From: an uncultured Myxococcaceae bacterium
Lineage (GTDB): Bacteria > Myxococcota_A > Polyangia > Polyangiales > Ga0077539
Length of the DNA: 64,000 bases
Direction of reading: 5' to 3'
NCBI GenBank assembly: GCA_945952225.1
Contig: CAMFHP010000008.1
Location: 1,798-65,797, forward strand
Part shown: positions 5,106-57,325 of the stretch, one piece after another
How the letters are laid out: every line of letters starts with the position of its first letter
How positions within the stretch are numbered: the first letter of the stretch is position 1
Translations under genes and position numbers: made by a program
Notes under the pieces: model-generated
The model's database searches: none
The model's input: only the letters and a program-made list of their open reading frames with translations
What the model was told of the DNA's origin: nothing

Positions 5106-5145
5106 CCCGCAGCCACGGCGTGCGTGCTAGGGTCCGCGCCCTCCG

Positions 5146-5943
5146 ATGGGCGGCGCCATTCACATCTTCGTGACCCTGCCGACGCTGATCTACACGGTGC
5201 TGCTCGGGGCCACGCTGCTCTACTGGCTCTCGGTGGTGCTCGGTGCGCTCGACCTCGACGCGCTCGGCGGCGACGGCGCAGACCACGGCGGCGACGCGCA
5301 CCACCACGACGCGGGCGATGCGTCGGGTGACGGCGATGGCGACGCCGACGGCGACGGCGATCATCCCGGTCACGGCGACCTGCTCTCGGCCCTCGGCGGC
5401 ATGTCGATCCGCAAGGTGCCGCTCACGATCTCGCTGAGCTTCACGGTGATCTTCGGCTGGCTGCTCAGCGCGCTCACGGTGCTCTTCGTCGGCGACGTCG
5501 CGCGGCGTGCGGGCGTGCCCTCCGCGGCCTTCAACGCGGTGACCTTCACGCTCACGCTGCTGGTCGCGCTGCGCCTCGCGGGTCTCGCGGTGAGGCCCAT
5601 CGCGAAGGTCTTCGAAGCGCGCGGCGCCACGAAGAAGGAGCAGCTCACGGGACGCCTCGCCGAGGTCTCGACCGCGCGGCTCGATGCGCGCTTCGGTCAG
5701 GTGCTCGTCGCCGATGGCGGCGCGGGGCTGCTCATCGACGCGCGCTGGGAGGGCGACCGCACGCTCCGTCGCGGCGAGCGTGTGGTGATCACGCACTGGG
5801 ACGCCGAGCGCGCCGTCGCCCACGTCGAACCCCTCGATGCGAGCCCGCGTGTGCGCGCGGTCGACGAGGGCGAGCGCGCGGAGGCAGAGCTTTCGCATTC
5901 GGCTGAAAAACAGACCAATCGACGCGGATCCGATTCGGGGTAA
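5146..5943 (+). CDS. YqiJ/NfeD-like OB-fold membrane protein
   Basis: N-terminal TM, then a His/Asp/Gly-rich loop ('GDAHHHDAGDASGDGDGDADGDGDHPGHGD'), more TM helices and a C-terminal OB-like segment ('GRLAEVSTARLDARFGQVLVADGGAGLLIDAR...GERVVITHWD'). This architecture, and the position directly upstream of a flotillin gene, match E. coli yqiJ. Confidence 0.75.
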   Translation: MGGAIHIFVTLPTLIYTVLLGATLLYWLSVVLGALDLDALGGDGADHGGDAHHHDAGDASGDGDGDADGDGDHPGHGDLLSALGGMSIRKVPLTISLSFTVIFGWLLSALTVLFVGDVARRAGVPSAAFNAVTFTLTLLVALRLAGLAVRPIAKVFEARGATKKEQLTGRLAEVSTARLDARFGQVLVADGGAGLLIDARWEGDRTLRRGERVVITHWDAERAVAHVEPLDASPRVRAVDEGERAEAELSHSAEKQTNRRGSDSG

Positions 5944-6036
5944 CCCGCCGATTCTCGTCCGTACGTGCCCGCCGCGTCTGGTACGGTCCGCGCCGCCGTC
6001 GCGCCGGGGTGCCGACGTAGCCAAAGGGAGCGTTGG

Positions 6037-7986: not shown

Positions 7987-8038
7987 ATCCCCGTCCTCTC
8001 CACGTCCATTCCCCCGCACCTGACCGGGAGCGAGAGCC

Positions 8039-31635: not shown

Positions 31636-31664
31636 TTGACTTTTCGTGGGAATACGACTACCCA
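31636..31664 (+). promoter_or_regulatory. candidate promoter for rpsA
   Basis: TTGACT (31636-31641), 17 nt, TACCCA (31659-31664). The -10 is weak. It lies in a lower-GC 415-bp intergenic region. Confidence 0.25.
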
Positions 31665-31905
31665 CGGCGGCCTCGCTCCGGGTTTCTTCCGGGCGGACCC
31701 TGCGCCTCGCGCGCCGTCTCACGTCGACACCCACGTAAGGGATATTCAACTCGCACCACGACCGCGCGATGGGCGCGCGGACGGCGGAGATGCGGCCCTC
31801 TGTGAACCGGGTTTCGATGCGTACGGCGCTGTGATGCACCACCGCAGACCGCGCGAAATGATCCGTCGGGGACTTCTCTCGAAAGGCAGGTCTCAGAACA
31901 ACCGC

Positions 31906-33651
<1,746 letters not shown>

Positions 33652-33682
33652 TCCGCTGATCTCGACCTGATACGAACGGCTT

Positions 33683-33715
33683 CGCGGCGCGGTGGCGATG
33701 AGCTCCCGCGCCGCG
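33683..33715. terminator. perfect 10-bp GC hairpin between convergent rpsA and the VIT-vWA gene
   Basis: CGCGGCGCGG (33683-33692), a 13-nt loop, then CCGCGCCGCG (33706-33715), followed by TCGTCATTT. The loop is large and the T-run short, so the call is tentative. Confidence 0.35.
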
Positions 33716-33770
33716 TCGTCATTTGGGGGATCGACGCGGCGTGGGTGCGGTGTGTTGCGCGGGGGTGCGC

Positions 33771-36700
33771 TCAGCGGCGCGCGGCCGTGCGGACCGCGGC
33801 GGGATCGGGGGTGACAGGCTCGTCGACGAGGGCGCCGTCGGTCACGCGAAGCCCGCGGGCGCGGTGCTCGCGATCGAGACGAACCGTGCGCTCCACGAGG
33901 CGCGTGCGAAGGCCCTGCGGAACGAGGAGCTGCACGCGCACGTCGACCGCGCGGCGGTGTTCGAGGCCCGCCGTGGCGCGCACCACGAGGTGCTGACCGA
34001 CGAGCGCGGTGTCGGGTGTCCACACGCGCGCGCCGAGCGATGCGGGCGCGTCGCCGACGACGGTGGGCGCGGTGTCGGCGTCGGTGCGTGCGAGGAGCTC
34101 CAGCGCGAGATCGGGGTGCGTCCATCGCACGATCACGCGGCCCTCACGGGCGTTGCGAAGGCGCGCGGCCACGCGGAGCCACGCGCGCACGGCGGGATCG
34201 TCGGGGCGCAGGGCCACCACGCGGGCCACCTCGGCGTCGAGGATCGCCTGCGCCACGGGGCCCATCGCGTCGCTCCCCGACGCCTCCGATGCGCGACGGA
34301 GCAGACGGAGGCCTTCGTCTTCGCGTCCCGCGGCCAGCGCGCAGAGTGCCACGCGCACGAGCGGGAGCGCGTCGCCGGGGCTCAACATCGCGAGCGTCTG
34401 CGCGTGGTGGTAGGCCTCCGCGGGCCATCCCCAGGTGAGCAGAAGGTCGGAGAGCCGCGCGCGGGCGAAGGGATCGTAGGGCGCGAACTCGGCGACCTCG
34501 GTGAACGCGCGCAACGCCTCGTCGCGGTCGTTGGCGCGCAGGAGGAGCTCGGCCACGCGGCTCCGCACGCGCGCGTCGGCGACGGGGTCGTGGCGCAGTC
34601 GCTCGCCCACCGCGCGTGCCTCGGGGAGCGAGCCTGCGTCTTCGAGGGCGTCCATGAGACGGAGGCGGAGGTCGACGTCGTCGGGCACCGCGACGAGCCA
34701 CGCGCGCAACAGGGCGATGCGCTGCGCAGGCGTGAGCGTCGGCGCGGCGAGGCGCGTGAGGAGCGCATCCCAGTCGAGCGACACAGGCCGTGCGCCGCGC
34801 GCGCGCCACACCCACGTGGGACCGAAGCGTCGCGCGATGGCGCCGTCGAGCCACATCACCGACGCGCGGTCGGAGAGGCCGTTGCGAAGCGCCACCACGT
34901 CGTCGGGATTCGTGAGTGCCACGAGGAGCACGTCGAGCAGCGCGCGACGGTCGTCCCACGTGCGCAGCTCGCAGCGTGCGACCGCGGTGTTCCACACGTC
35001 GAGGGCGGTCGAGGCCGATGGGCCGCGCACACGCAGACGCTCGCGCCACAGCGTACGGAGCACGTCGCGTGAGAGGCCCGCGGTGGGCGCGCACACGCGC
35101 GTCGCGGGTCCCGTCGCGATGGGGAGCGACCACGTGAACGCGCGCACGTAGCGTCCCGGCGAGGCGCCGAAGAGCGCGGGCTCGGGCACGCGCACGCCCG
35201 ACACCGCGCGGCGCACACACTCGGCGGCCTCGACGTCGTTGAGGGTCGAGTACGCGAGCGTCGCCGCCGTGACCTGGCCCGTCGCGTCGATGTCGGCCGC
35301 GATGCCCACGGTGCCCGCGATCGCAGGGCGAAGTGCGCGACGTCGCGTGATGCACACCTCGGCTGCGGGACCTGCCACGGAGAGCGCCTCGACGAGCGCC
35401 GCCGCGCCGCCCACGCCGCGCCCCTCGCCCTCGCCGTGCACCTGCCAGCCGCGTCCGTCGTCGAAGGCCACGGGAACCTCGCGGGCGTCGCGCTCGGTGC
35501 GAAGCACACCGCGCGGAGCGAGGTCCGACGACACACCGAGCGACGGGAGACGCGCGCCGTCGTCCTCGGCGGGCCAGAGGCTCGCGCGCACGGTGAGTCC
35601 CTGCGCCGCGACCGTCGGATCGACGGCGGCCACCACGAGGCCCGACACCGGCGTGATCACACCGAAGCGCGCGCCGAGGTCTGCGATGGAGCCGCGTCCG
35701 GCGCCCCCTCGCGTGAGCGCGTCGATGCGCGCGGAGGCCCAGCGCCGTGCGAGGTCGCCGTGGTCGACCACGTCGCGGAGTTCGAGCGGGAGCGTCCACG
35801 CGCGCGCGGTGAGCCCGTCACGGGCGCGCACGGTGAGCTGCGTGGGGGCGCGTCCGGGGAGCTCGGCGAGGAGGTGCAGCGCATCGCCCGCGACCCACAC
35901 CGTGCGGCGCGTGGGCATCGGGTGCGTGAGCAGCGGGCCCGCATCGACGCGAAGGTCGCGAAGACACGGACGGAGCGCGTGGGCCACGATGCGTTCCGCG
36001 GCGTGCACGGCGTCGTCGGCGTCGTCGACACGCAGTGCGAGGCCGCCGTCTTCGGTGAGCGGCGCGAGCACCTCGGGGTGCGCCGCGGCGCCGAGCGTGA
36101 CGGTGTAGAGCCGCAGGTCGGGCGCCTGCCGCGTGGCCTCGTCGACGAGACGCGCAGGGTCGAGTGCGCCCACGGTGGGCGTGCCATCGCCGAGGTACAC
36201 CACCGCGCCGTTGCGCGACGGATCGAGGGCCGCGTGCGCGTCGACGAGCATGCGCGCGAGGTCGGTCGCGCCCCCCGAGCGGGCACGGGCCACGGCGTCG
36301 AGCATCGACTCGCGACGGGCGTCGTCGACGGCGGCGAGCGTGCCCAGCGAAGGCCCTGCGGGGCGCGCGCCGAGGTCGCCGACAAAGAGGGCCGCGCGGT
36401 CGTCGGGACCGAGCTGCCGGAGCATCGCGTCGATGGACGCGCGGGCCAGTTCGAGCGATGCGGGGTCGGTCGCAGCCGAGGTGTCGAGCACGAGCGCGAG
36501 GTCGGTTCCACGTGCGATGGGCGTTGGAAGCGCGACGTCGACGAGGAGGTGGCGCGTGCCATCGGGCTGCGCGGCGACGCTGCGCCACGCGCGGGCCGCG
36601 GGGATCGTGCGAGGCCTCGCGTCGTCGAGGGTGACCACGAGCGCGCCGCGCGGGCGCCAGTCGCTGCGGCGCATGCGAACGTGCTGGTCGGCGTCGAGGC

Positions 36701-37811
36701 GCGCTCCCTCGGGAGACTCCACGCGTGCGGCGTCGGCCTTCGAGAGGTCGACGTCGAGGGAGAACTCGCCCACCGCCTGCGGCGCCACCGCATCGCCGAG
36801 GGGATACACCCAGCTCCGTCGGTTGTGCGTGTGCGGGAGCCACTGAACCCACGAGAGTTCCGTGCGGCGTGTGGCGCCGGGCGCGAGCGTGCCGAGGCTC
36901 GCGTACACCTCACCGTCGCCCGCGGAGAGCAGCGCCGCGAGCCCCGCGTGGGCCACCCGTCGCGCGACCACGCCGGGCACCGCGTCGTTCCACCCGTCGC
37001 CCTCGCCCTCGCCCACACGGAACGACGACACGAGCGCGCCGTCGGGCACTCGCACGCGGTACTCCACCGGCGCGACGCGCTCGCCGCCGTTGAAGAACCG
37101 CTGCGTCACCGTGGTGATCGCGAGGTCGCCGGTCACACGCACGACCACCCGCTGCTCGTTGAGCGCGAGCGCGCCGGGCGCCTCGCCGTCGTCGCCGTGC
37201 GACACCATGCGTCCCGTCGACGCGTGCGCGGTCTGCGGGGTGGCGGCGCCGCCGGTCCAGTCGTCCCACACGCCCGCGGGGTGGAGTTCGAGCGCGCCCG
37301 TTCCTTCGAGCGACTCGCCCTGCGCGACCTGCCCCTGTCGCGCGCCCTGCTGGTACGAGGCCTCGCCGCGCACGACCACGACGCGCGTGCCCGCAACGCC
37401 TGCCACGCCGCGCTCTACGGAGAACGCCGCGTCGGCGAAGCGCAGCACCGCATCGTCGCCCACAGAGAGCGCGCGCTCGCCCTCGCCCCACGCCGATGCG
37501 GACACACGACCGCGCACCACCCGCGCGCGTCCGTCGAGGAACGTGAGCTCGGTGTCGCCCGCGAGGCGCAGCTCGATGCCGTCGTCGGTGCGCACGATGG
37601 CGCGTCCTTCGGCGGCGGTGCGCACGCTTCCGCTGCGTTCGGCGCGCGCGATGCCTTGCGGATCGACGACCGAGCCTGCGCCGAGCACGCGCACGCCCGG
37701 GTGCAGCACCTCGATGGAAGCGCAGGTCGAAGCCCCCGCGCGGAGCCCCTTAGCGCGGCACGACATTTCGCCGAGGAGCGCGACGAGTGCGACGGTGACG
37801 GCGAGCTTCAC
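33771..37811 (-). CDS. FecR-like / VIT / von Willebrand A / TonB-C(AgmX-PglI)-like / TPR giant protein (1,346 aa), paralog B
   Basis: Signal peptide and a FecR-like segment ('GRAIVRTDDGIELRLAGDTELTF'). VIT-like 'VVVRVTGDLAITTVTQRFFN...VEYRVRVP'. vWA 'LALVLDTSAATD...GGATDL...VVYLGDGTPTVG'. 'VCITRRRALRPAIAGTVGIAADIDATGQVT...ECVRRAV' resembles a TonB-C fold. TPR-like C-terminal third. Confidence 0.85.
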   Translation of the reverse strand: MKLAVTVALVALLGEMSCRAKGLRAGASTCASIEVLHPGVRVLGAGSVVDPQGIARAERSGSVRTAAEGRAIVRTDDGIELRLAGDTELTFLDGRARVVRGRVSASAWGEGERALSVGDDAVLRFADAAFSVERGVAGVAGTRVVVVRGEASYQQGARQGQVAQGESLEGTGALELHPAGVWDDWTGGAATPQTAHASTGRMVSHGDDGEAPGALALNEQRVVVRVTGDLAITTVTQRFFNGGERVAPVEYRVRVPDGALVSSFRVGEGEGDGWNDAVPGVVARRVAHAGLAALLSAGDGEVYASLGTLAPGATRRTELSWVQWLPHTHNRRSWVYPLGDAVAPQAVGEFSLDVDLSKADAARVESPEGARLDADQHVRMRRSDWRPRGALVVTLDDARPRTIPAARAWRSVAAQPDGTRHLLVDVALPTPIARGTDLALVLDTSAATDPASLELARASIDAMLRQLGPDDRAALFVGDLGARPAGPSLGTLAAVDDARRESMLDAVARARSGGATDLARMLVDAHAALDPSRNGAVVYLGDGTPTVGALDPARLVDEATRQAPDLRLYTVTLGAAAHPEVLAPLTEDGGLALRVDDADDAVHAAERIVAHALRPCLRDLRVDAGPLLTHPMPTRRTVWVAGDALHLLAELPGRAPTQLTVRARDGLTARAWTLPLELRDVVDHGDLARRWASARIDALTRGGAGRGSIADLGARFGVITPVSGLVVAAVDPTVAAQGLTVRASLWPAEDDGARLPSLGVSSDLAPRGVLRTERDAREVPVAFDDGRGWQVHGEGEGRGVGGAAALVEALSVAGPAAEVCITRRRALRPAIAGTVGIAADIDATGQVTAATLAYSTLNDVEAAECVRRAVSGVRVPEPALFGASPGRYVRAFTWSLPIATGPATRVCAPTAGLSRDVLRTLWRERLRVRGPSASTALDVWNTAVARCELRTWDDRRALLDVLLVALTNPDDVVALRNGLSDRASVMWLDGAIARRFGPTWVWRARGARPVSLDWDALLTRLAAPTLTPAQRIALLRAWLVAVPDDVDLRLRLMDALEDAGSLPEARAVGERLRHDPVADARVRSRVAELLLRANDRDEALRAFTEVAEFAPYDPFARARLSDLLLTWGWPAEAYHHAQTLAMLSPGDALPLVRVALCALAAGREDEGLRLLRRASEASGSDAMGPVAQAILDAEVARVVALRPDDPAVRAWLRVAARLRNAREGRVIVRWTHPDLALELLARTDADTAPTVVGDAPASLGARVWTPDTALVGQHLVVRATAGLEHRRAVDVRVQLLVPQGLRTRLVERTVRLDREHRARGLRVTDGALVDEPVTPDPAAVRTAARR

Positions 37812-40800
37812 GGCGCCCTCCGGGTGGCGATGCGAACGTGGGTGTCGGGCTCGGGCGGCGGTGTGAGCGCGCCGTCGACGACGTCGAAGCGCGCACGAGA
37901 TTGCGACGCCTCGAAGCGCACGCGCTGACGCACGACACGTTCGCGCGGCGTGCCTTCGTTCCAGAGCACCACGAGCTCGACGTCACCACGCGGACGACCG
38001 CCGCCCGCGCGGCGCACTTCGAGGGAGAGCCCCGCGGGAACGTCGGACCACACCGCGCCTTCGAGGGGCACCTGCGCGCCCACGAGTTCGGCGCGTCGAA
38101 GGGGCACGTCGCGGGTCGCGACCCAGAGCTCGGCCGACTCGTCGGGGTGCAACGCGCGAAGCACCACACGCACCGCGCCGGCACCACGCGCCGCGGGGCT
38201 CCGACGCCATCGTGCGCGCAGGGCGGCCACGTCGCGCGCGGCGGCGTGCGGGTCGGACGCGGCGAGTGCGAGCTCGGTGGCGATCCACGCGGCGGCGGCT
38301 TCGACAGTGCCATCGGTCGCACCCGGTCCGCCCGCGGTGCTCACGCGCTCCGCGAGACGGATCGACTCGTCGAAGCGACCGGCCGCGCGCGCGGCCCACG
38401 CGAGTCGCAGCAGGATCTCGGGCGCGTCGCGCCGCAGGGTCGCGAGGGTCTGAAACTGCCGATACGCCTCCTGCGCCCAGCCGTGAGCGAGCGCGATGTC
38501 ACCGAGACGCTGACGCGCCGCGGGATCGTCGGGGGCGAACTCCACGATCTCGGAGAACGCGCGCCGCGCCTCGGCCTCGTCGCCGATCGCGAAGAGCGCC
38601 TCACCCACCACGGTGCGGGCGCGTGCGTCGGTGCGCGGGTCTTCGCGGAGCTTCGCCGCCGTGGCGCGCACCACCTCGCGATCGTCTGCGAGCACCGCGG
38701 CGTCGAGCACGAGCAGCGCCAGTTCGAAGTCGTCACCGTGCACGCGCGACAGGGCCAGCAGCACCGAGAGCCGCTCGCGGGGCGTCACCGCGTGGGCGAG
38801 CGCCGCGGAGAGCGTGGCCGCATCGAGGCGTCCGAGGCCGAGCTCGTCGGCGCGCGCGAGCTCTCCGCGCCGGGCGAGCGTGCGGAGCAGCACGTCGCGC
38901 ATCCACGCGCGTGCACCGGCGTCGCGCGCGAGCCCGCGGTAGAGCGCGATCTGTCCGTCGACGGATCCCACCGTCTGCGCGAGCACGCGCAGCATCGCCA
39001 CGCGGTCGGGCCATGCGGGCAGCTCGCACGCGCGCTTCGCGTCGCTCCACACGCGGAGCGCGGTGGCCGCGTCGGCCTGCGCGAGCCGTTCGCGCCAGAG
39101 CGACACGCGCTCGGCGAGGGTCACCGCCGCGGCGTCGCTGCACCGTGCGAGCGCAGTGGTCTCTGCGGGTGCGGGCGCCGACTGGGCGGCGCGCTGCGCC
39201 TGGTCTGCGGCGGGCTCGCGGTGGTCACGGGCGTTGCGCTCGTCGCCGTCGAATCCCGCGACGGACGAGCCCTCGATGCCCCATCGCGACGTCGTCGCAC
39301 GTCGACCGCCCGCGGGGCGTAGTCCGTCGGCAGCGCGCTCCGTCGCGGGCATCACGGGTGCCGCGGTCGGAGGTGGCGGCGGCGCGGCGACCGTCGGCTC
39401 GGCCTCCGCAGCGTTGCGATTCATCGGCGCGAGCGGCTGCTCCTGTTGCGCGGCCTCACGGGCCACACCGGGTGACGACGGTGCTTCGGGCTGCGCGGGG
39501 ATGTTTGTGGTGCGATCGATGTCCTGCGGAGCCGCGGTGGGTGTGGTGGTCGACGCGCTCGGCGCGGGTGCAGCAACCGGTGCCTGCGCGACGGTCGCGG
39601 CGGGGACCTCTTCGCGCGCCTCGTGGTCGAGGCGTGCGCATCCCACGAGCGGAATCAGATCGACGAGGGACCACCGCAGGTCGCTCTCGCGACGCGCATC
39701 GCGGGGCACGAGCGGCTCGTCTTCCGAGGGCACGTAGAACGACGTGAACGGCGTCACGAGCCCGAAGCGCGTGCCGAGTTCGACGACCACCGCGCGGGGC
39801 TCACCCGTCGCGAGCAGGTGATCGAGGCGGGCCGACGCCCAGCGCGCGCGCAGGTCGTCGCGGTCCGCGAGGGTGCGCACCGCGGGGTCGACGGTGCGCA
39901 CACGTTCCTGACCATTCCAGCGCGCGCGCACGGTGACACGCGGGGTGCGATCGCCGGTGGCGCGTCCGACGACCACGAGGGGTTCGCCCGCAGGCACGTC
40001 GACGGGCCCCACCGGGTACACACGTTCGACGTCGGGCCCCAGGTCGACCTGAAACCCTCGCACCAGCGGACGCGTCGCGTGTTCGATCACCTCGATGGCC
40101 GTGCGCGCGACCTCGGCGCGTCGTGCCACGCGCGCGGCGAATCCCGTGGGGGCCGCGATGCCCGCGAGCACGTCGAGCTTCGGCGCGTCGCCCACCGCGA
40201 TCGCGTAGAGCCTCGGGTGCGGATCCATGCGCGCGAGCCGCGCCCGCAGCGCCGTCACATCGGCCTCGCCCACCGTCGCATCGCCGTCACCGACGTACAC
40301 GATCACGCCGTTGCGTCGCGGGTCGAGGGCCGCGTGGGCCGCGTCGAACATGGCGCCGAGATCGGTTGCGCCACCGCGGCGGTCGTTGGCCAGCGCGTCG
40401 AGCAGCCGCTGACGGGCCTCGTCGGTCACCGCCGCGAGCCGTGCTTCGGGCGCGCCCACGGACCGCGTGGACACATCCCCCGCGAGCACGAGGAGCCGAT
40501 CGCGCGGCGAGAGCGAGCGCACGAGGGCCTCCGCGAAGGCCTGCCCGAGGAGCGCCGAGGCGGGGTCGGTGGCCGCCGAGTGGTCGACCACCACCACGAG
40601 GTCGACGCCCTCGTCGCGCGCGGTGAGCGCCTCGGAGAACGGCGGCTGCACCGCGACGCGCACGAAGCCGAAGCGGTCACCGACGGCGCCCGACGACGGC
40701 ACGCGCACGACGCTGGCCGCCAGGGGCGGAGGGCCTTCGAGGTCGAGCACGAAGTCCGCGGCGGGGAGCGTGTCGCTGCGAGAGAATGTGAGGTGGTCTC

Positions 40801-41971
40801 CATCGCGCACGGCGCCGTCGCTCGCGCGGAGCCCCGTCGACTGCGCGCGGCTCACGTCGACGTCGACGCGGAGCTCTCCCACGCGCGTGCCGAGCGAGGC
40901 GAGCGGGAGCCGCCATGCGCGGCGGCCGTCGACGCCCGCGGAGAGCCACTGGGTGTACGTGATGCGCACGCGCCGCGTGGTGCCCGCGGCGATGGGATAG
41001 AGGCGCGCGTGGTAGCGCCCTGGAGCGTCCCATTCGAGCAGCGCGGGGTCGTGGGTGGAGCCGCGGTAGACCTGCGCCTGGTAGTCGGCGGCGGCGACGT
41101 TGCGCTCGCGCACGAAGCCGTCGACGAGCGCGCCCCGTCGGTCGACGGCGAAGCGTTGGAGCACCGCGCCGCGCGGCACCACGAGGGTGTAGAGGCCCTC
41201 GACGGTGTCGGCGGTGGGGTTGAAGAAGGTCTCGTCGAGCTCGGTGATCGCGAGGTCACCCACCACGGCGACGTGCGCGTCGAGGCGCTGCAGCGCGAGG
41301 GGCCAGCGCGGCGCGCCCTGCTCGTCGGGGCGTCGCGCAGCCACCGCGCCGATGCCCATGGCGCTCGCCGTCTCGACGCCCGCGGGGAGCTCATCGGCGA
41401 GCCCGCCGGTCCAGTCGTCGAAGAGCGTTCGCGCGTTCACGGTGGCGCCCGAGACATCGATGCGCGCCGACTCGCCTGCGCGCACGAGTCCCTGACGTTC
41501 GCCCGCGCGCCATGCGACCTCGCCCGCGAGCACGTCGACGAGCGCTGCACCGCCCACGCGCGCCACGCTCGCACGCACCCCGCGCAGCGCGAGCGACACC
41601 GCGCCGACCGAGAGCGCCGCAGGGTCGTCGTCAGGCGCGTCGCGACGTCCGCCGATCCACACGCGCCCCGCGTCGAGCGTGAGCGCCGATGCGTTGTCGA
41701 TGCGCACGCGCGCGTCGCGATCGAGGAGCACGCGGTCGCCGTGGTCGAGCGCAACGATGGCCCGCCCGGCGCTGTCGGTGCTGAGCACCGCACCCGCGAC
41801 GAGGCGACGGAGGTCGGTCACGTCGACCGTGGAGTTCCCCTCGCGCAGCGACACGCCGGCGCGCACGCGCTCGACGTGGGCGACGGTGACGACGAGCGGC
41901 GACGCGCGCTCGCACGCGGCGGACGACACGAACGTGGCAAGAACAACGGCCGCGGCGAACGAGAAGCGCAT
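37808..41971 (-). CDS. FecR-like / VIT / von Willebrand A / TPR giant protein (1,387 aa), paralog A
   Basis: Signal peptide and FecR-like 'GRAIVALDHGDRVLLDRDARVRI'. VIT-like 'HVAVVGDLAITELDETFFNP...GLYTLVVP'. vWA 'DLVVVVDHSAATD...GGATDL...IVYVGDGDATVG'. A Pro/Ala/Gln low-complexity insert, then a TPR-like C-terminus. Its stop overlaps the next start by 4 nt. Confidence 0.85.
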   Translation of the reverse strand: MRFSFAAAVVLATFVSSAACERASPLVVTVAHVERVRAGVSLREGNSTVDVTDLRRLVAGAVLSTDSAGRAIVALDHGDRVLLDRDARVRIDNASALTLDAGRVWIGGRRDAPDDDPAALSVGAVSLALRGVRASVARVGGAALVDVLAGEVAWRAGERQGLVRAGESARIDVSGATVNARTLFDDWTGGLADELPAGVETASAMGIGAVAARRPDEQGAPRWPLALQRLDAHVAVVGDLAITELDETFFNPTADTVEGLYTLVVPRGAVLQRFAVDRRGALVDGFVRERNVAAADYQAQVYRGSTHDPALLEWDAPGRYHARLYPIAAGTTRRVRITYTQWLSAGVDGRRAWRLPLASLGTRVGELRVDVDVSRAQSTGLRASDGAVRDGDHLTFSRSDTLPAADFVLDLEGPPPLAASVVRVPSSGAVGDRFGFVRVAVQPPFSEALTARDEGVDLVVVVDHSAATDPASALLGQAFAEALVRSLSPRDRLLVLAGDVSTRSVGAPEARLAAVTDEARQRLLDALANDRRGGATDLGAMFDAAHAALDPRRNGVIVYVGDGDATVGEADVTALRARLARMDPHPRLYAIAVGDAPKLDVLAGIAAPTGFAARVARRAEVARTAIEVIEHATRPLVRGFQVDLGPDVERVYPVGPVDVPAGEPLVVVGRATGDRTPRVTVRARWNGQERVRTVDPAVRTLADRDDLRARWASARLDHLLATGEPRAVVVELGTRFGLVTPFTSFYVPSEDEPLVPRDARRESDLRWSLVDLIPLVGCARLDHEAREEVPAATVAQAPVAAPAPSASTTTPTAAPQDIDRTTNIPAQPEAPSSPGVAREAAQQEQPLAPMNRNAAEAEPTVAAPPPPPTAAPVMPATERAADGLRPAGGRRATTSRWGIEGSSVAGFDGDERNARDHREPAADQAQRAAQSAPAPAETTALARCSDAAAVTLAERVSLWRERLAQADAATALRVWSDAKRACELPAWPDRVAMLRVLAQTVGSVDGQIALYRGLARDAGARAWMRDVLLRTLARRGELARADELGLGRLDAATLSAALAHAVTPRERLSVLLALSRVHGDDFELALLVLDAAVLADDREVVRATAAKLREDPRTDARARTVVGEALFAIGDEAEARRAFSEIVEFAPDDPAARQRLGDIALAHGWAQEAYRQFQTLATLRRDAPEILLRLAWAARAAGRFDESIRLAERVSTAGGPGATDGTVEAAAAWIATELALAASDPHAAARDVAALRARWRRSPAARGAGAVRVVLRALHPDESAELWVATRDVPLRRAELVGAQVPLEGAVWSDVPAGLSLEVRRAGGGRPRGDVELVVLWNEGTPRERVVRQRVRFEASQSRARFDVVDGALTPPPEPDTHVRIATRRAP

Positions 41972-42267
41972 GGCGATGGCCGATCCTTCGGGCGTGGAGG
42001 GGTGACGCGAGGCCCGCTTCGATCCGTACGGGCGCGCTGCACGTCGACGTGACGTGGAGCGCGTCGGACCGACGAGGCGCGCGGTGCCTTGGCAAGTTCG
42101 CGCAGCACGTGGCCGAGATGCCCGCCGAAGTGTTGCCCGTGATCGACCCGCGTCGCGACACTTCCCGACGACCGGATGCGGGAGATCACGGCGTGCTCAA
42201 GGCGCGCGGTCATCCCGCCGAGAGGAGCCTCTCGGAAGCGCCGGTTGCGGCGCACTTCGGGAGATCC

Positions 42268-42492
42268 ATGCGAACGAACGCGGTCGAGCACGTGGTGGCG
42301 ATGGTGTCGGCGGTGGCCCTCGTGGCGGTGGCCGCCGTGGTGGTGCTGCGAGCGCCGTTGGCGCAGGGCGCGGCCCGTCACGCAGGGCGCCCGCACACGC
42401 CCGGCGTGGTGGAGCGGGCGCAGACGACCGCGTGTTCGGCGCGGTGCGCGGCGGGCCTCGAAGCGTGCCTCGCGCGGTGCGCGCTCCGTTGA
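42268..42492 (+). CDS. candidate 74-aa single-pass membrane protein with twin CX3C motif
   Basis: MRTNAVEHVVAMVSAVALVAVAAVVVLRAP...TTACSARCAAGLEACLARCALR. High GC3 and a GGGAGA sequence 3 nt upstream of the ATG. There is no homology evidence and the ORF may be spurious. Confidence 0.3.
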   Translation: MRTNAVEHVVAMVSAVALVAVAAVVVLRAPLAQGAARHAGRPHTPGVVERAQTTACSARCAAGLEACLARCALR

Positions 42493-42611
42493 ACAGGTGA
42501 AACTGTCGCGTCGCGCGGAGATCGGTCGAAGGTTTCTCCGGTTCGCGGTCATACACCGTGCAGGACGTTGCGCGGCCCGCGCAGCGCAGCCCCCACGACG
42601 AACGAGACGCC

Positions 42612-43889
42612 ATGGAACACACCGACACCTCTTCGCTCGATCACGGCCTCCCCTCCCCAGCGGCGTCTGCGCGTCTGCTCGTCGACGAGGGCGGGCGCGC
42701 GCCGCGTACGGTCCTCGTGGCGCCGGGCTCGGTGCTGCGCGTCGGCCGGGCGCCCGACCTGGAGCTCTCGCTCGACGATCCCCGCGCATCGCGCACGCAC
42801 TGTCTCCTCCGCTACGACGGCCAGTCGGTCACCCTGCAGGATCTCGAAAGCTCGAACGGCACGTGGATCGGCGCGAACCGCGTCCACGGGACCGTGCCCC
42901 TCGCGAACGGCGCGCTCTTTCGCGTGGGGAGCACCTCGGTGGTGCTGCTCCTGCCCGAGCGTGAGGCGTCGGCGCGCACGCTCCCCGCGACGGCCCCTGC
43001 GCCCGTGATGGTCGACCCTGCGACGGTGTCGCTCTTCGACCTCGCGCGACGCCTCGGACCGACGGACCTCGCGGTGCTGGTGCAGGGCGAGACGGGCTCG
43101 GGCAAGGAGGTGGTCGCGCGGGCGATCCATCAATCGAGCCCGCGGGCGACGGGACCCGTCGTGGTGGTGAACTGCGCGGTGCTCTCCGACGCGGTGAACG
43201 AGCCCGACAACGCGCAGCGCATCGCGGAGTACTTCGACACCGCGGAGGGGGGCACGCTCCTCCTCGACGAGGTGGGCGAGCTGTCGGCCGTGAGCCAGGC
43301 GCGCCTGCTCCGCGCCCTGCAGGAGCGCACGGTGGGGGCGTCGACCACGTCGGGCGTGCGGGTCGTCGCGACGACGCACCTCGACCTCGCGCGCGAGGTG
43401 TCGGCGGGACGCTTCCGCGAAGACCTCTACTTTCGCCTCAACGGCGTGACCGTCGACGTGCCCCCGCTGCGCGCACGCGCGAAGGACATTCCCGCGCTCG
43501 TGCAGCGCATGCTCGAAGAGCACGGCGGCACCCTCACGCTGGGCACCGGCGTCGCGGCGGTGCTCGCGGCGCATCGCTGGCCCGGCAACGTGCGGGAGCT
43601 CCGCAACGCCCTCTCGTCGGCGGTGGCCCTCGCGCAGGGCGGGGTGATCAAGGTCGAGCACCTTCCGCCCGCGGTGCGCGGTGACAGCGCGGCCTCGTCG
43701 GCCCCGGTATCGCCGCTGCGCGAGCGCGTCGATGAGACCGAGCGCAAGGTCATCATCACGGCCCTCGAGAGCACCGGGTGGAACCAGTCGCGCGCCGCGC
43801 GGGTGCTGGGCATCTCGCGCCGCGCGCTGATCTACAAGATGGAGCGCTACGGTCTGAAGCCCCTGCCCAACGGCCAGCGTCACGCCTGA
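42612..43889 (+). CDS. FHA-domain NtrC-type AAA+ transcriptional regulator lacking the GAFTGA loop
   Basis: FHA: '[25 protein letters not shown]...[13 protein letters not shown]'. AAA+: '[19 protein letters not shown]', '[12 protein letters not shown]', '[10 protein letters not shown]', '[10 protein letters not shown]'. Fis-type HTH: '[26 protein letters not shown]'. Confidence 0.85.
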
Positions 43890-44014
43890 CCGACGACGCC
43901 CCATCGACGGGGCGGCCACCGCACGTTGACGTGCACGTTTCCAGCAGAGACGGGGTATGCTCCGCAGGTGGCGCGCGGCCCCCGATCGCGCCGCGCGGAG
44001 TCGACCCGACCACG

Positions 44015-45541
<1,527 letters not shown>

Positions 45542-45596: not shown

Positions 45597-46799
45597 ATGC
45601 TTCACCGTTCCAGCCGTCTCCGCGTTGCCCTCCTCGCGTCGTGCACGTGTGTGCTGTGGGGTGGTGCGACGAACGCGCAGCCCGCGCCGCAGACGACGCC
45701 CACCGCCGCCCAGGTCGCCGAAGGTCGAGAGCATTTCGACCGCGGAATCAGGCTCTTCGACGAGTCGAACTTCGATGGCGCGCTCGTGGAGTTCCAGCGC
45801 GCGTGGGACCTCTCGCAGCGCTCCTCGGTGCTCACGAACATCGCCGCGGCCTGTCAGGCCCTGCACCGTTACGCCGACGCCATCGCGGCCCTCGAGCGCT
45901 ACCTCACCGTGTCGACCGACGCGCGCCAGCGACGACAGGTGCAGCGCGCGATCGAGGAGCTCCGGGAGCTCATCGCCTACGTGCGTGTGACGGTGGTGCC
46001 CGCCGACGCGCAGGTGCGCCTCGACGCGCGCTCCATCGATGCCTCGCAGGAGGTGCTCGTCGGCCCCGGCACGCACCACATCGAGGCGACGCACGCGGGC
46101 CGCGTGGCCGCCTCGGCAGATTTCACCATCGCCTCGGGCGAGCACCGCGAGGTGCGCCTCACCCTCGCGGAGACCGCAGGCGGCACCACCGGACCGACGG
46201 TGCTCATCGTCGACCCCGCGAACCCGCCGCCCCCGCCGCCTCCGCCGCCCCCGCCTCCACCGTCCACGATCGCGGTCGACGGCGTTCCCTCGAACGCCAC
46301 GCTGCGCCTCGACGGCGTGCCCATGGTGCTCGACGGACGCCCGCTCACCGTGGCCCCCGGCGCCCATCGCGTCGAGATCTCGGCCCCCGGCATGCGCCCG
46401 TGGAGTGGGCCCATCACAGCCCGCGCGCAGGCGTCGCACCGCCTCCACGTGTCGCTCTCGCCCGCGACCACGGGAATGCGCCCGATCTACTTCATCGCCG
46501 CGGCTTCGGCGACGGGCGTGTTCCTCATCGCGACGGTGGCGACGGGGCTCTCGGCCATCAGCACGCACTCGGAGTACATGTCGCTCGCGCCCGGCGATCC
46601 GCGCATCGCGACGCTCGGCTCCGAGGGGCGCGCGCTCTCCATCGCGTCCGACCTCCTGGGTCTCGGCACCCTCGGACTCGGCGCGCTCTCCGTGGTGCTC
46701 TTCACCCGCACGTCGTTTCACAACGAGCCCTCGTCGGCGCGCTTCGTTCTCGCGCCGACCGCGGGCGGCGCCACCGCGGGCGCGACCTTCACGTTCTGA
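45597..46799 (+). CDS. secreted TPR-like / PEGA-like domain protein with Pro13 tract and C-terminal TM region
   Basis: Signal peptide, then 'YVRVTVVPADAQVRLDARSI...GPGTHHIEATHAG' and 'TLRLDGVPM...VAPGAHRVEISAPG' (PEGA-like), then hydrophobic C-terminal helices. Confidence 0.7.
   Translation: MLHRSSRLRVALLASCTCVLWGGATNAQPAPQTTPTAAQVAEGREHFDRGIRLFDESNFDGALVEFQRAWDLSQRSSVLTNIAAACQALHRYADAIAALERYLTVSTDARQRRQVQRAIEELRELIAYVRVTVVPADAQVRLDARSIDASQEVLVGPGTHHIEATHAGRVAASADFTIASGEHREVRLTLAETAGGTTGPTVLIVDPANPPPPPPPPPPPPPSTIAVDGVPSNATLRLDGVPMVLDGRPLTVAPGAHRVEISAPGMRPWSGPITARAQASHRLHVSLSPATTGMRPIYFIAAASATGVFLIATVATGLSAISTHSEYMSLAPGDPRIATLGSEGRALSIASDLLGLGTLGLGALSVVLFTRTSFHNEPSSARFVLAPTAGGATAGATFTF
46224..46262 (+). 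repeat. (CCN)13 tract encoding 13 consecutive prolines
   Basis: Read directly, in frame with CDS 45597-46799. Confidence 0.9.
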
Positions 46800-54272: not shown

Positions 54273-55031
54273 ATGGCCGACCCGACCGTGCACACCGTGG
54301 TGTTCCTGCACTCGTTTCCGATGGACCGCGCGATGTGGGACGCGCAGCGCGCCGCGGTGGAATCCGACGGACACCGCGCGCTCGCCCTCGACCTCGCGGG
54401 CTTCGGCGACGCACCGCTCCCGCCCGACGCCGCGCCCACGATCGAGACCTACGCCGCGCAGGTGCTCTCCACGCTCGATGCACACGGCGTGGCGCGCGCG
54501 GTCTTCGTGGGCCTCTCGCTCGGCGGCTACGTCGCGCTCTGCATCGCCTCCATGGCCCCTGCGCGCGTCGCGGCCCTCGTGCTCGCCGACACGCGCAGCG
54601 CCGCCGACGACCCGCCCACGCGCGCGGGACGCATCATCAACCTCTCGCTCGTGCGCGACCGCGGCGTCGAAGCCCTCTTCGACAAGATGCGCCCGATGCT
54701 CCTCGCGCCGGACCACGACCCCGCGGTGGCGACGCAGCTCCGCGCGATGGCGCTCCGTCAACGCCCGGAGTCCGTGGCCTTCGCGCTCGTCGCGATGCGC
54801 GACCGGCCCGACCGTGGCGCCGTGCTCGATGCGTTCGCCGCACCGACGCTCGTGCTCGTGGGAGACCGTGACGTCATCACACCGCCCGCGGAGATGACCG
54901 CCATGGCCGCGCGGATGCGCGACGCGCGCGTCGAGGTGCTCGAAGGCGCGGGACACCTCTCGAACCTCGAACGGCCCGAGGGCTTCAACCGCGCGCTGCG
55001 GGCGTTCCTGCGCGGGCTGCCGGGCGCGTAG
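54273..55031 (+). CDS. alpha/beta hydrolase
   Basis: GAGG RBS before ATG 54273. 'VVFLHSFPMD', nucleophile elbow 'GLSLGG', and 'GAGHLSNLERPEGF'. Confidence 0.8.
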   Translation: MADPTVHTVVFLHSFPMDRAMWDAQRAAVESDGHRALALDLAGFGDAPLPPDAAPTIETYAAQVLSTLDAHGVARAVFVGLSLGGYVALCIASMAPARVAALVLADTRSAADDPPTRAGRIINLSLVRDRGVEALFDKMRPMLLAPDHDPAVATQLRAMALRQRPESVAFALVAMRDRPDRGAVLDAFAAPTLVLVGDRDVITPPAEMTAMAARMRDARVEVLEGAGHLSNLERPEGFNRALRAFLRGLPGA

Positions 55032-55335
55032 CGCGCTCGCGTTCGAGCTTCGCGATCCGGGCGTCGACGCGGTCGAGGTGCGAGGTCGAGAAGTGCCGGT
55101 CGACGAAGCGTCCGACGCCGAAGAGGGCCGCGAGGGCGCAGAACACCTCGGTGCGTTCGGGCGCGCCGAGCCAGGCCTTCAGCGCCCAGCCCACGCCGTA
55201 CCCGAGCCCGAAGCACACGATCGCGATGGGAAAGAGCGCGGCGTAGCGGTTGGTCTCCCACCAGGTGATGCGGTCGAGGAGCCGCTGGCGCTCGGCGCGC
55301 GCGAGGGTCAGGGGGTCGTTCACGTCGTCGGCCAT
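54985..55335 (-). CDS. hypothetical small membrane protein (116 aa)
   Basis: Start chosen at 'MADDVNDPLTLARAE'. High GC3 and two hydrophobic helices. Its 3' end overlaps the convergent hydrolase gene by 47 nt. Confidence 0.5.
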   Translation of the reverse strand: MADDVNDPLTLARAERQRLLDRITWWETNRYAALFPIAIVCFGLGYGVGWALKAWLGAPERTEVFCALAALFGVGRFVDRHFSTSHLDRVDARIAKLERERATRPAARAGTPAARG

Positions 55336-55509
55336 CGCAGGGCGCGCGACTCTACACGCCGCGGCCCGCAGCGCCCACACCCCGACCGCGCAGGGCACCG
55401 CAGCGCGTCACCGTCGACGGGAGGCGACATGCGCGGAACACCGTCCACACAAGGGATTTTCGCGCAAATGCGTCGTGACCGTCGCGCGAGGTGCGTTACC
55501 GTCGCGGCC

Positions 55510-57285
55510 ATGCGAACCGCGATGCGACTCGTCTCTCTGGTCACCCTCGCCTCGTGCGCTGCGATGTCGTGCAGCGACGGCGGCACGTCTCCGACGCCGA
55601 CGCCTTCGCAAGACGGCGGCGTGTGCACGCCCGACCGCGCGCAGTGGAACAGCACCGTGCGCGGCCTCGTCGCGCAGCAGTGCGGCGGGTGCCACGGCGA
55701 CACGCCCTCGTACGGCGCGCCCTACTCGCTGCTCGACTACGACGCGCTCCTTCGCGCGCGCACCGGCGGACGCCCCGTCGATCGCATCGCGGCGCGCATG
55801 ATGGCCGGCACCATGCCCCCGTCGGGCACGCCCGCGCCCACCGACGACGTGGCCCGCGCGATCGTGCAGTGGGCCACCTGCGGCGCGCAGACGCCGTCCG
55901 CGGGTCACGGCCTCCGCGCGACGCGCCCGGTGTTCCGCTCGCCCCCCACCGCGCCCTCGGGCATGGAGACCTGGGACCTCACCGCGCCGCAGTGGAGCGT
56001 CGGCCCCGACGTGCTCGACCGCTACCAGTGTTTCACCTTCGAGTTCCCCGGCACGACCGACCGCTTCGTGCGGCGCTTCGAACTCGTCGCCGACCAGCGC
56101 GCGGTGCTGCACCACGTGGTGCTCCTCCGCGACAACAACCGCGTGGCCCCGACGACGCCGTTCGAGTGCGGGAGCATGCCCGAGGGCAGCGACTACCTCT
56201 ACGCCTGGGCGCCCGGTCAGGACGCGCTCCAGTTCCCCGAGGGCGGGCTTCGCATCACGCCGGGGCAGCGCCTCGTGATGCAGATCCATTACAACAACGG
56301 ACAGCACCTCCCGAACCTCCGCGACAGCTCGGGCCTGCGCCTCTACCACACGGCGCCGAGCGGCACGGAGTACGGCATGGTCGCGCTCGGTCCGCTCGCC
56401 TTCCAGATCCCCGCGCGCTCCACGGGTCAGACGGCGAGCGCGTGCACCGTCACCCGCGAGTCGCGGATGCTCGCGGGCATGCCGCACATGCACCAGTTCG
56501 GCTCGACCTTCACCGAAGAGATCGTGCGCGCCGACAACTCGCGCGAGTCGCTCATCGGCATCCAGGGATGGCAGTTCGCGTCGCAGCTCTTCTACGACTT
56601 CAGCACCCCGCTCCACCCCGGCGACCGCATCGAGACGCAGTGCGTGTTCGACAACACCACCACGTCGACGGTGCGCAGCGGCGGACGCACGAGCGACGAG
56701 ATGTGCTTCAACTTCGCGTACATCACGCCGCCCCCGTCGGAGCGCTACTGCGACCAGCCCGTGGGCTCGCCCGAGACGGTGCCGTACACCCCGGGCATGT
56801 GCGCGATCCCCGCGGCGCCCACGGACATCGCCACGGTGTCGGGCCGCGCGATGGTCGCTGCCGCGCCCGCCCTCGCCGGCGGCACGCTGCGCGACGGACG
56901 CTGGGAGCTCCAGGGCGTCACCTGGTATCTGAACTCGGGCATGGTGGGCACGAGCACCACGATCAACCTCGACGAGACCTCGCTCCACGCGCGCGGCCAG
57001 GTGTGGATCAACGGCACGCAGATCAACGCCGACCTCGTGACCCGTCTCAACCTCACGCTCGTCGGCGGCGCGCGCCTCTCGCGCGACCTGCCCACCACCT
57101 TCGCGGGCGCCCTCGCGAGCGGCACCACCTCGCCGCTGCGCCTCACGGCCTCGTGCCCGAGCTCTGGCGCGCCGCAGACCCTCGACTACGCCGTCGACGG
57201 CGACACGCTCACCGTGGGACCGCCCGCGCAGAACTACTCGGGGCTCATGGTCACGCCGCGCTACCAGTTCCGCTTCGTGCGCTGA
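55510..57285 (+). CDS. lipoprotein: heme-c (CxxCH) domain fused to a PHM/DBH-like type II copper monooxygenase and a C-terminal beta domain
   Basis: Lipobox 'LASC'. 'QCGGCHG' (55681-55695). 'VLHHVVLL' (aa 201-202), 'MQIHYNN' (H260), 'PHMHQFG' (H326/H328) and 'SDEMCFNF' (M398). The spacing (+58, +66, +70) is close to the PHM Cu ligands H107/108, H172, H242/244, M314. An alternative start lies at 55468. Confidence 0.8.
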   Translation: MRTAMRLVSLVTLASCAAMSCSDGGTSPTPTPSQDGGVCTPDRAQWNSTVRGLVAQQCGGCHGDTPSYGAPYSLLDYDALLRARTGGRPVDRIAARMMAGTMPPSGTPAPTDDVARAIVQWATCGAQTPSAGHGLRATRPVFRSPPTAPSGMETWDLTAPQWSVGPDVLDRYQCFTFEFPGTTDRFVRRFELVADQRAVLHHVVLLRDNNRVAPTTPFECGSMPEGSDYLYAWAPGQDALQFPEGGLRITPGQRLVMQIHYNNGQHLPNLRDSSGLRLYHTAPSGTEYGMVALGPLAFQIPARSTGQTASACTVTRESRMLAGMPHMHQFGSTFTEEIVRADNSRESLIGIQGWQFASQLFYDFSTPLHPGDRIETQCVFDNTTTSTVRSGGRTSDEMCFNFAYITPPPSERYCDQPVGSPETVPYTPGMCAIPAAPTDIATVSGRAMVAAAPALAGGTLRDGRWELQGVTWYLNSGMVGTSTTINLDETSLHARGQVWINGTQINADLVTRLNLTLVGGARLSRDLPTTFAGALASGTTSPLRLTASCPSSGAPQTLDYAVDGDTLTVGPPAQNYSGLMVTPRYQFRFVR

Positions 57286-57325
57286 GCGCCGCCCCACGCC
57301 GCGCTCGCGCATCGAACGCCTGCGC

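Follow-up and report, generated by a model that had tools for sequence, protein, structure and literature searches.

A conserved tandem pair of predicted envelope lipoproteins with ITIH-like heads and TonB-C/TPR-type tails in Polyangia

Two adjacent minus-strand genes were analyzed in a window of 64,000 nt from an uncultured Myxococcaceae bacterium placed by GTDB in the Polyangiales (GenBank assembly GCA_945952225.1, contig CAMFHP010000008.1, forward-strand positions 1,798 to 65,797). The upstream gene, U (37808..41971, ATG start, 1,387 aa), and the downstream gene, D (33771..37811, GTG start, 1,346 aa), encode paralogs with heads like those of the ITIH proteins (heavy chains of inter-alpha-trypsin inhibitor). 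Judged by comparative sequence analysis, the pair constitutes a conserved, apparently co-translated operon of Polyangia (Sandaracinaceae and related 'Polyangiales' lineages). The reading favored here, which we put at about an even balance of probability, is that U and D are an obligate pair of exported lipoproteins, probably anchored in the outer membrane, that form an envelope scaffold or adhesion complex through their TPR and TonB-C-like tails. Coordinates of features within the two genes refer to the minus strand throughout.

Relatives were collected by a genome scan using one genome per species, which returned 207 relatives from which 78 loci were kept, and by a protein search in which at least 240 clusters among the candidates scored had E <= 1e-10. 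The best protein-search match was only 68% identical, and the named matches were all from Polyangiales, Sandaracinaceae or Sandaracinus. Orthologs of U were present at 54-68% identity in Polyangiales metagenome-assembled genomes (MAGs), and gene context showed that this tandem arrangement recurs in the cultured Sandaracinus amylolyticus as well as in a Polyangiales MAG. The 78 loci contained 45 clean tandem pairs with D directly downstream of U; every D-type gene had a U-type gene directly upstream, and D never occurred without U.

Direct reading of the sequence bore out the preliminary description of this DNA as to two adjacent minus-strand open reading frames (ORFs) sharing 4 nt. The overlap is GTGA and the junction (37808..37821) reads GGAGG-gcgcc-GTGA, the Shine-Dalgarno sequence GGAGG (37817-37821) preceding the D start codon GTG (37809-37811) by 5 nt, while the TGA stop of U occupies 37808-37810. 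A 4-nt overlap was kept in 26/45 pairs (ATGA in 22, GTGA in 4); in 17 others the spacing ranged from -1 to 59 nt, and an apparent 251-nt overlap in one was probably a start-call artefact. Functional coupling of the two genes is supported, at the level of gene arrangement, by the kept overlap and by the absence of D without U. Third-position GC content was of coding type in both genes (0.86 in U, within 0.86-0.87 in D).

The paralogy of U and D is far beyond chance, as had been proposed for their whole length. BLASTP aligned the two over residues 1-751 with 35% identity (E 3e-82) and U 944-1385 to D 907-1346 with 37% identity (E 7e-41), and every motif quoted in the preliminary description was found in the alignment. 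The median within-genome identity of U and D was likewise 35%. A neighbor-joining tree of 1,096 columns placed U and D in separate clades of mirrored internal topology, with one small clade (L021, L073, L074, L079) as the exception, and U-U and D-D pairwise distances were correlated with r = 0.986 over 43 genomes. Separate, mirrored clades in these genomes point to an ancient duplication. Divergence has been asymmetric: the VIT domain was 63% conserved among U copies and 43% among D copies, and D of the window has a deletion in VIT relative to U. The TPR core was the best-conserved region of all, also between the paralogs (54% vs about 35% overall). The earlier suggestion of duplication followed by sub-functionalization gained support from the mirrored clades, the unequal VIT conservation and the uneven distribution of a TonB-C-like module described below. 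That D might be a decaying pseudogene was considered and rejected; the gene is intact, has kept its motifs and is present in 44 or more genomes.

Domains were assigned with Pfam hidden Markov models (HMMs), with a profile of 14 family members searched against the PDB, and with AlphaFold2 (AF2) models compared by Foldseek. The order in U is lipoprotein signal, FecR-like domain, ITIH-like head, Ala/Pro linker, TPR solenoid and beta-sandwich; in D it is lipoprotein signal, FecR-like domain, diverged ITIH-like head, TonB-C-like domain, TPR and beta-sandwich. FecR, VIT, VWA and TPR domains had been named earlier for both proteins, and HMM searches upheld VIT and TPR in each: VIT (PF08487, cutoff 26.5) scored 60.4 bits over the full length of the model (1-111) in U and 27.3 bits over part of it (2-50) in D, and several TPR families were matched by both. 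FecR (PF04773, cutoff 24) was accepted in U only (25.2 bits, against 15.7 in D), and VWA fell below its cutoff of 23.8 in U (17.3 bits) and D (15.1 bits), its fold being recovered by the profile and by AF2. The AF2 model of U residues 1-800, computed from a 69-sequence alignment, had a predicted local distance difference test score (pLDDT) of 90.5 and a predicted template-modeling score of 0.89. Its N-terminal FecR-like beta-sandwich (aa 25-183, 41423..41899) matched the CCSSD of PupR (6ovk_R) with E 2e-6 and a root-mean-square deviation of 2.6.

The ITIH-like head of U (aa 222-750, 39722..41308) comprises the VIT domain, a vWA domain (aa 457-632) and a post-vWA domain. Profile positions 222-789 of the family were aligned with residues 35-634 of ITIH4 (9c4f_I; about 570 positions, E 1.2e-24), and the AF2 model of U matched ITIH1 (6fpy) over 588 columns with E 2e-28 and a target-normalized TM score of 0.59. 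A predicted vWA fold following VIT, with a post-vWA domain behind it and collinear with ITIH, is thereby confirmed in the model independently of the weak Pfam VWA scores. The corresponding head of D (aa 213-733, 35613..37175) was delimited by its partial VIT match and by BLASTP to U.

The preliminary description had spoken of a degenerate metal-ion-dependent adhesion site (MIDAS). The sequence D-x-S-A-A-T was indeed present in both copies, as D463-H-S-A-A-T468 in U (40568..40585), which aligns with DKSGSM of ITIH4, and as DTSAAT in D (D443-T448, 36468-36485), with D, S, A and T invariant in the family alignment. Three stretches of the family could be set against ITIH4, namely D-x-S-A-[AG]-T against DKSGSMSG, GGA[TS][DN]L against GGTNI, and Y-x-GD[GA]-x-P-T-V-G against LTDGDPTVGE. 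Relative to a complete MIDAS (DxSxS ... T ... D) only the second Ser was replaced, by Ala or Gly, whereas the D and S of the loop, the T of GGATD and the D of YxGDG were retained across the family. Because this single replacement is fixed family-wide and in both paralogs, the predicted site is read as a conserved four-of-five variant and not as decay.

Behind the head the two proteins part company. The TonB-C/AgmX-PglI-like module proposed for D was located at aa 801-896 (35124..35411, with Cys820 and Cys865). Its NF033768 score of 31.3 bits (E 1.7e-7) lay below the curated cutoff of 40, and the assignment was backed by a family HMM (66 bits), by an AF2 fold of alpha-beta-beta-alpha-beta order (H22-48, E54-62, E67-76, H81-92, E109-117; pLDDT 83-92), by weak profile matches to PDB TonB C-terminal domains (E about 2e-3) and by family members that passed the cutoff, these being Sandaracinus U (103.9 bits), Sandaracinus D (61.9) and P0036 (88.7). 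The Cys820/Cys865 pair was conserved in 98% of D copies. With the family HMM the module was found in 44/44 D copies and 15/45 U copies; its absence, the state of U in the window, where NF033768 gave no match, was thus the commonest among U copies (30/45).

In place of the module U carries a disordered, Ala/Pro-rich linker of 164 aa (aa 780-943, 39143..39634) without a TonB-C HMM match. It had been described as a Pro/Ala/Gln insert of about 200 aa; the Ala/Pro low complexity stands (A 25%, P 15%), but Gln makes up only 5% and the length is shorter. Nor is it an insert. In the U orthologs that keep the module (Sandaracinus P0071, and P0036) about 175 aa matched the C-terminus of GltG (NF033760 positions 474-649; 170 and 150 bits). 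Since these relatives keep the domain and D always does, the segment is better read as the ancestral linker, left after lineage-specific loss of the GltG-like C-terminal domain.

The remainder of the tail is common to both. A helical/TPR solenoid occupies aa 944-1262 of U (38186..39142), with an invariant pair C944/C982, and aa 907-1220 of D (34152..35093), where the AF2 model is all-alpha with pLDDT mostly above 90. A C-terminal beta-sandwich follows at aa 1263-1375 of U (37847..38185), with a W-x-H-P-D motif of which H1275, P1276 and D1277 are invariant, and at aa 1225-1331 of D (33819..34139; strands at 446-552 of the model); the assignment in U was made from the AF2 fold of the homologous region of D. 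The model of D residues 780-1346 (pLDDT 85) thus contains the TonB-C-like domain, an all-helical solenoid (aa 909-1220) and a terminal beta-sandwich. When this half was compared with the PDB by Foldseek, generic TPR superhelices alone were returned (E about 1e-6), and profile searches of PDB sequences and Pfam gave no credible relative of the beta-sandwich.

Both proteins begin with a predicted lipoprotein signal of the signal peptidase II type, MRFSFAAAVVLATFVSSAAC in U (41912..41971, Cys20) and VKLAVTVALVALLGEMSC in D (37758..37811, Cys18). These Cys residues align with the lipobox Cys column of the family, conserved to 100% in U and 95% in D; in most relatives L-[AS]-[AG] precedes the nearly invariant Cys that closes the N-terminal hydrophobic segment. 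The family alignment shows n- and h-regions followed by [LVI][ASTVI][GAS]C, and a relaxed lipobox pattern was passed, after start-codon choice, by 112/125 family genes. A signal ending in a lipobox Cys in U, D and these relatives indicates that the two are probably membrane-anchored lipoproteins. Of the earlier phrase 'secreted or periplasmic', export therefore holds and free secretion does not. Conserved Cys pairs in both proteins fit an oxidizing compartment. In Myxococcus xanthus, Lys at position +2 is the mark for retention in the inner membrane (PMC3222651). It was found in 0/45 U copies and 3/45 D copies, and by extrapolation of that rule U and D would most likely be sorted to the outer membrane.

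Besides the paired Cys residues U has one conserved Cys without a partner, Cys778, in the U-specific motif WSLVDLIPLVGC(A) (residues 766-779, 39635..39676). It was conserved in 98% of U and 0% of D copies, with x-G-C in 44/45 U copies, and its motif, [LVA]-[ATV]-G-C-S, sits about 30-60 residues after the ITIH-like head, where AF2 predicted disorder (pLDDT <50). The region resembles a second lipoprotein signal in Sandaracinaceae, with Arg residues, 14-17 uncharged residues, a lipobox and a Ser/Gly/Glu/Pro-rich tether. In other clades the hydrophobic stretch before the Cys is only 3-6 residues long ('PEVRAAGCS', and 'DLIPLVGC' in the window). A universal transmembrane helix at this internal segment was rejected, as many clades have just those 3-6 uncharged residues. 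Cys778 could be the relic of a captured GltG/TonB-type membrane segment, the site of an intermolecular disulfide, or something new.

Divergently from the pair lie genes for an FHA-domain/sigma-54 bacterial enhancer-binding protein (bEBP; 42558-43889, +, assigned by its domains), a membrane Ser/Thr kinase (43778-45541, +, transmembrane helix at about aa 445-463) whose periplasmic tail is short and PEGA-like, and a PEGA protein (45597-46799, +) that combines its PEGA domains with a signal peptide, a TPR-like region, a poly-Pro tract and hydrophobic segments at the C-terminus. The three together resemble an envelope-sensing module. Control of U and D by the bEBP and kinase, as had been proposed, was not supported beyond the nearest relatives. 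The synteny on which that proposal had been staked was conserved only in the five closest loci (L006, L022, L024, L032 and L046) and was absent from L001, Sandaracinus and most other loci; the block was consequently rejected as a conserved part of the system. A search of the window for the sigma-54 promoter TGGCAC-N5-TTGCW with up to two mismatches gave 8 matches vs 15.8 expected and none in 41972-42557, and a scan for GG-N10-GC in nine aligned regions upstream of U detected no conserved -24/-12 element. Ser/Thr kinase genes occurred within 6 kb of the pair in 23 loci, at varied positions. These genomes are very kinase-rich, so the association within 6 kb is near chance and weak at most. A kinase gene was seen to abut the pair on the same strand in several unrelated clades, upstream in L010, L012-L014 and L023 and downstream, overlapping the stop codon of D, in L035, L043 and L061.

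In the six closest relatives (L003, with two copies, L006, L022, L024, L032 and L046) a gene for a CglB-like vWA lipoprotein lies between the FHA-bEBP gene and U, divergent from U. Its product (e.g. L032:5565-6869, -) is Cys-rich, has a canonical DxSGS MIDAS (DRSGSMS) and matched the CglB model NF033757 in part (83.5 bits, E 1.4e-23, cutoff 200). The same intergenic gap in the window is occupied by a 74-aa ORF (42268-42492, +) whose codon usage is coding-like and whose product has a single hydrophobic helix and a tail rich in Cys (C-x3-C-x6-C-x3-C), without an NCBIfam match. About 150-165 nt upstream of the U start, at 42123-42138, the motif GCAA(N1-2)CCTTCGG was noticed (minus strand: GGGCAACACTTCGGCG). 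It stands at the same position in L006, L022, L024 and L032, fits a sigma-54 -24/-12 element in neither orientation and may be an operator or promoter element. On the other side of the pair rpsA (31636-33651, +) converges on D, their stop codons lying only about 120 nt apart. A simple scan detected no intrinsic terminator in the interval (33652-33770), and a sigma-70 promoter and terminator scan of 33500-42700 gave nothing above chance. The PADLOC anti-phage defence models did not match U or D, and their matches to the kinase and bEBP were to generic domains.

In the favored reading U and D would associate with each other, most plausibly through their conserved TPR cores or by docking of the TonB-C-like domain on the TPR, by analogy with GltG and GltD, and would build a periplasmic or cell-surface scaffold. 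The two non-identical vWA heads might then bind a protein or polysaccharide ligand through the fixed four-of-five MIDAS, while the TonB-C-like domain of D could offer a further partner a docking site by beta-strand augmentation. No energy-transducing TonB function would be expected, because coupling of TonB or GltG to ExbBD or AglRQS runs through an N-terminal transmembrane helix that neither protein has. In favor of such a complex are the paralogy and coupling of the genes, their conservation as a pair with D always behind a U, the lipoprotein signals and assigned domains, the conserved Cys pairs and TPR core, the GltG precedent for binding of a TPR protein, and the CglB-like gene divergent from U in the six closest relatives. 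Several observations weigh against it. The lipoboxes of the window itself are atypical (S-A-A-C in U, E-M-S-C in D), and the sorting rule has been carried over from Myxococcus to a distant class. A mirror-tree correlation is expected of any vertically co-inherited neighbors. Extra solo copies of U, with no D within 10 kb, exist at L026, L042, L071 and L077 (also L039 and L080), the MAGs of L042 and L077 also holding a full pair (L043 and L038, respectively); the TonB-C-like domain is kept in the solo copies L042, L039 and L080 and absent in L026, L071 and L077. Across clades the pair is without a conserved partner gene, such as one for an outer-membrane barrel or a motor, and tblastn detected no trace of the CglB-like gene in the window (41972-42557).

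ITIH heavy chains stabilize hyaluronan matrices, and U and D might similarly be independent adhesins, exposed at the surface or released to the matrix, that bind exopolysaccharide or ligands on prey or substratum through their vWA/VIT heads, with the tandem arrangement serving co-regulation only. The full-length ITIH-like head agrees with this, as do the solo U copies and the fact that other bacterial VIT-vWA proteins are anchored to the surface through signals for sortase or exosortase (partial matches to TIGR03788 and TIGR04477). Some lipoproteins of M. xanthus are exported to the matrix (PMC3222651), and Ala at +7, the matrix signal of that species, was present in 14/45 U copies; it is not conserved, however, P dominating in D and the window having L and R. 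U and D also have no DPHFII ester-transfer site, LPXTG or PEP-CTERM, and modules of the TonB-C-like and TPR kinds, which they carry, typically belong to periplasmic assemblies. As D is never alone and the 4-nt overlap in 26/45 pairs argues for stoichiometric co-production, independent adhesins are considered unlikely. Less likely still is that the pair forms a periplasmic sensor arm. Its FecR-like and TonB-C-like modules would then engage an outer-membrane transducer, in the way of FecR and TonB in cell-surface signaling, and a signal would pass to the Ser/Thr kinase and on to the FHA-bEBP. Such an arm would account for the divergent bEBP, kinase and PEGA genes beside the pair, for their recurrence in the five closest loci, for the kinase genes within 6 kb elsewhere, some of them immediate same-strand neighbors, and for the match of the FecR-like fold to the PupR signaling domain. 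Yet the bEBP synteny is confined to one shallow clade, the kinase count is near chance in genomes so rich in kinases, no sigma-54 promoter was found upstream of U and no TonB-dependent receptor gene is linked to the pair. U and D moreover have no transmembrane or cytoplasmic part through which a signal could pass inward.

The unpaired Cys778 allows a further alternative, that U undergoes processing, or is anchored a second time, at its internal lipobox-like site, giving head and tail lipoproteins or one protein tethered at two points, or that Cys778 forms an intermolecular disulfide which builds a higher-order assembly. The near-invariance of this residue in U and its absence from D speak for some such role, the Sandaracinaceae stretch is just like a lipoprotein signal, and the succession of h-segment, disordered linker, Gly-rich stretch and TonB C-terminal domain mirrors the transmembrane helix, linker and C-terminal domain of GltG. 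The 3-6-residue stretch of other clades is nevertheless too short to act as a signal or to span the membrane as a helix, AF2 gave no confident structure there and, from the established biology of Sec export and lipoprotein biogenesis, an internal signal behind a translocating chain would have the wrong orientation for Lgt and Lsp. We know of no precedent for processing or double anchoring at an internal lipobox, and this alternative is regarded as improbable to much the same degree as the sensor arm. Scarcely more probable, and offered as speculation, is a wider proposal, in which U, D and the CglB-like lipoprotein of close relatives would be related to the myxobacterial Agl-Glt/Nfs focal-adhesion machinery, as a hitherto unrecognized, motor-less counterpart of its periplasmic and outer-membrane part. 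The GltG-type TonB-C domain would have been fused to a TPR scaffold and an ITIH/integrin-like adhesive head, and Cys778 would be the relic of the captured GltG-type membrane segment, now serving as a covalent cross-link or second anchor. If true, the pair would count as an envelope tether or adhesion complex of a new kind, one that is specific to Polyangia.

The remainder of the window is high-GC chromosomal DNA (about 72-75%) with housekeeping genes including ffh, folD and rpsA. A 1,904-aa protein (8024-13738, +) carries DUF3686 ('ATPase involved in DNA repair', 632 bits), DUF7902 and AAA/AAA_5, and is preceded by two ORFs without a Pfam match (5131-5943 and 5944-7986); PADLOC found no defence-system match for this protein or for other large unknown ORFs of the window. 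A 795-aa protein (54898-57285, +) has both domains of the copper type II ascorbate-dependent monooxygenases (PHM/DBH-like; PF01082 and PF03712), a family known chiefly from animals, and its gene adjoins a Rieske-domain ORF (57041-58945).

VIT-vWA (ITIH-like) proteins play important parts in the matrix biology of vertebrates, and to our knowledge none from bacteria has been characterized. A search of the literature on VIT/vWA proteins in myxobacteria or bacteria found nothing on the U/D family, which databases annotate generically. The present analysis delimits a bacterial ITIH-like family at 78 loci of species-representative genomes, including that of cultured S. amylolyticus. The family is built from known kinds of domain; it has a confident structural model, a predicted MIDAS fixed in four-of-five form, an apparently ancient division of labor between U and D, and the unexpected fusion of a GltG-type TonB-C domain with TPR. 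Should the envelope complex be real, the pair would be a tractable system for studying how integrin- and ITIH-like heads are used in diderm envelopes and what role TonB-C-like domains have without coupling to a motor; should there be no complex, U and D would be routine uncharacterized paralogs.

Among known systems, FecR and PupR share with the family the N-terminal beta-sandwich (Pfam FecR in U; PupR CCSSD 6ovk_R), but U and D have neither the anti-sigma N-terminal domain nor a transmembrane helix, their N-terminus being a lipoprotein signal. No gene for an extracytoplasmic function sigma factor or TonB-dependent transducer was linked to the pair in the window or in the loci of relatives. 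The marine proteobacterial sortase target TIGR03788 and the XrtN-sorted VIT protein TIGR04477 likewise have a VIT-vWA head in an exported bacterial protein. Matches to TIGR03788 were partial (U 76 and D 62 bits, cutoff 552) and TIGR04477 scored 16.7 bits (cutoff 250); U and D differ in being anchored by an N-terminal lipobox and in having an extra tail of about 600 aa, and neither contains an LPXTG or PEP-CTERM-type sorting signal.

With ITIH1 and ITIH4 (6fpy and 9c4f) the homology extends over the whole VIT, vWA and post-vWA head, the motifs 'DG-PTVGE' and 'TP(L/F)TS' are common to both, and a long Pro-rich region comes after the head. Two distinct heavy chains, themselves paralogs, also act within one complex in vertebrates. 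The bacterial proteins differ in the Ala or Gly at the second MIDAS Ser, in the N-terminal lipid anchor, in the FecR-like domain and the TonB-C-like/TPR/beta-sandwich tail, and in being without a bikunin or chondroitin partner. The DPHFII cleavage and ester-transfer site of ITIH was looked for in U and D; DPHF is absent, and DPH occurs only at U 583 and 1240, in unrelated contexts.

CglB, a vWA lipoprotein of the outer membrane that serves as an adhesin in M. xanthus gliding (PMC9946355), resembles U and D as a vWA lipoprotein of a myxobacterial envelope, and a gene of its kind neighbors U in the six close relatives mentioned above. U and D do not match the CglB model, and the CglB-like neighbor differs from them in its canonical DxSGS MIDAS and in having no VIT domain. 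GltG (PglI) and GltJ (AgmX) of the Agl-Glt gliding machinery, and the paralogous NfsG, share the disulfide-type TonB C-terminal-like domain (NF033768). Equivalog scores were at most 170 bits, against cutoffs of 650 for GltG and 450 for GltJ, and covered the C-terminal part only. U and D have no FHA or ZnR-GYF cytoplasmic domains and no transmembrane helix for coupling to the motor (AglRQS), and their TonB-C-like domain is internal instead of C-terminal. These likenesses to the gliding machinery are resemblances, not membership. In an AlphaFold model of Agl-Glt, GltD, a TPR protein of the periplasm, is wrapped by residues 428-543 of GltG and serves as docking site for the TonB-C-like domain of GltG, whose sheet is augmented by a strand of GltF (PMC11761067). 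Whereas the domain in that model binds a separate TPR protein, members of the U/D family carry a domain of this kind fused immediately upstream of their own TPR solenoid, which suggests that the two modules work together.

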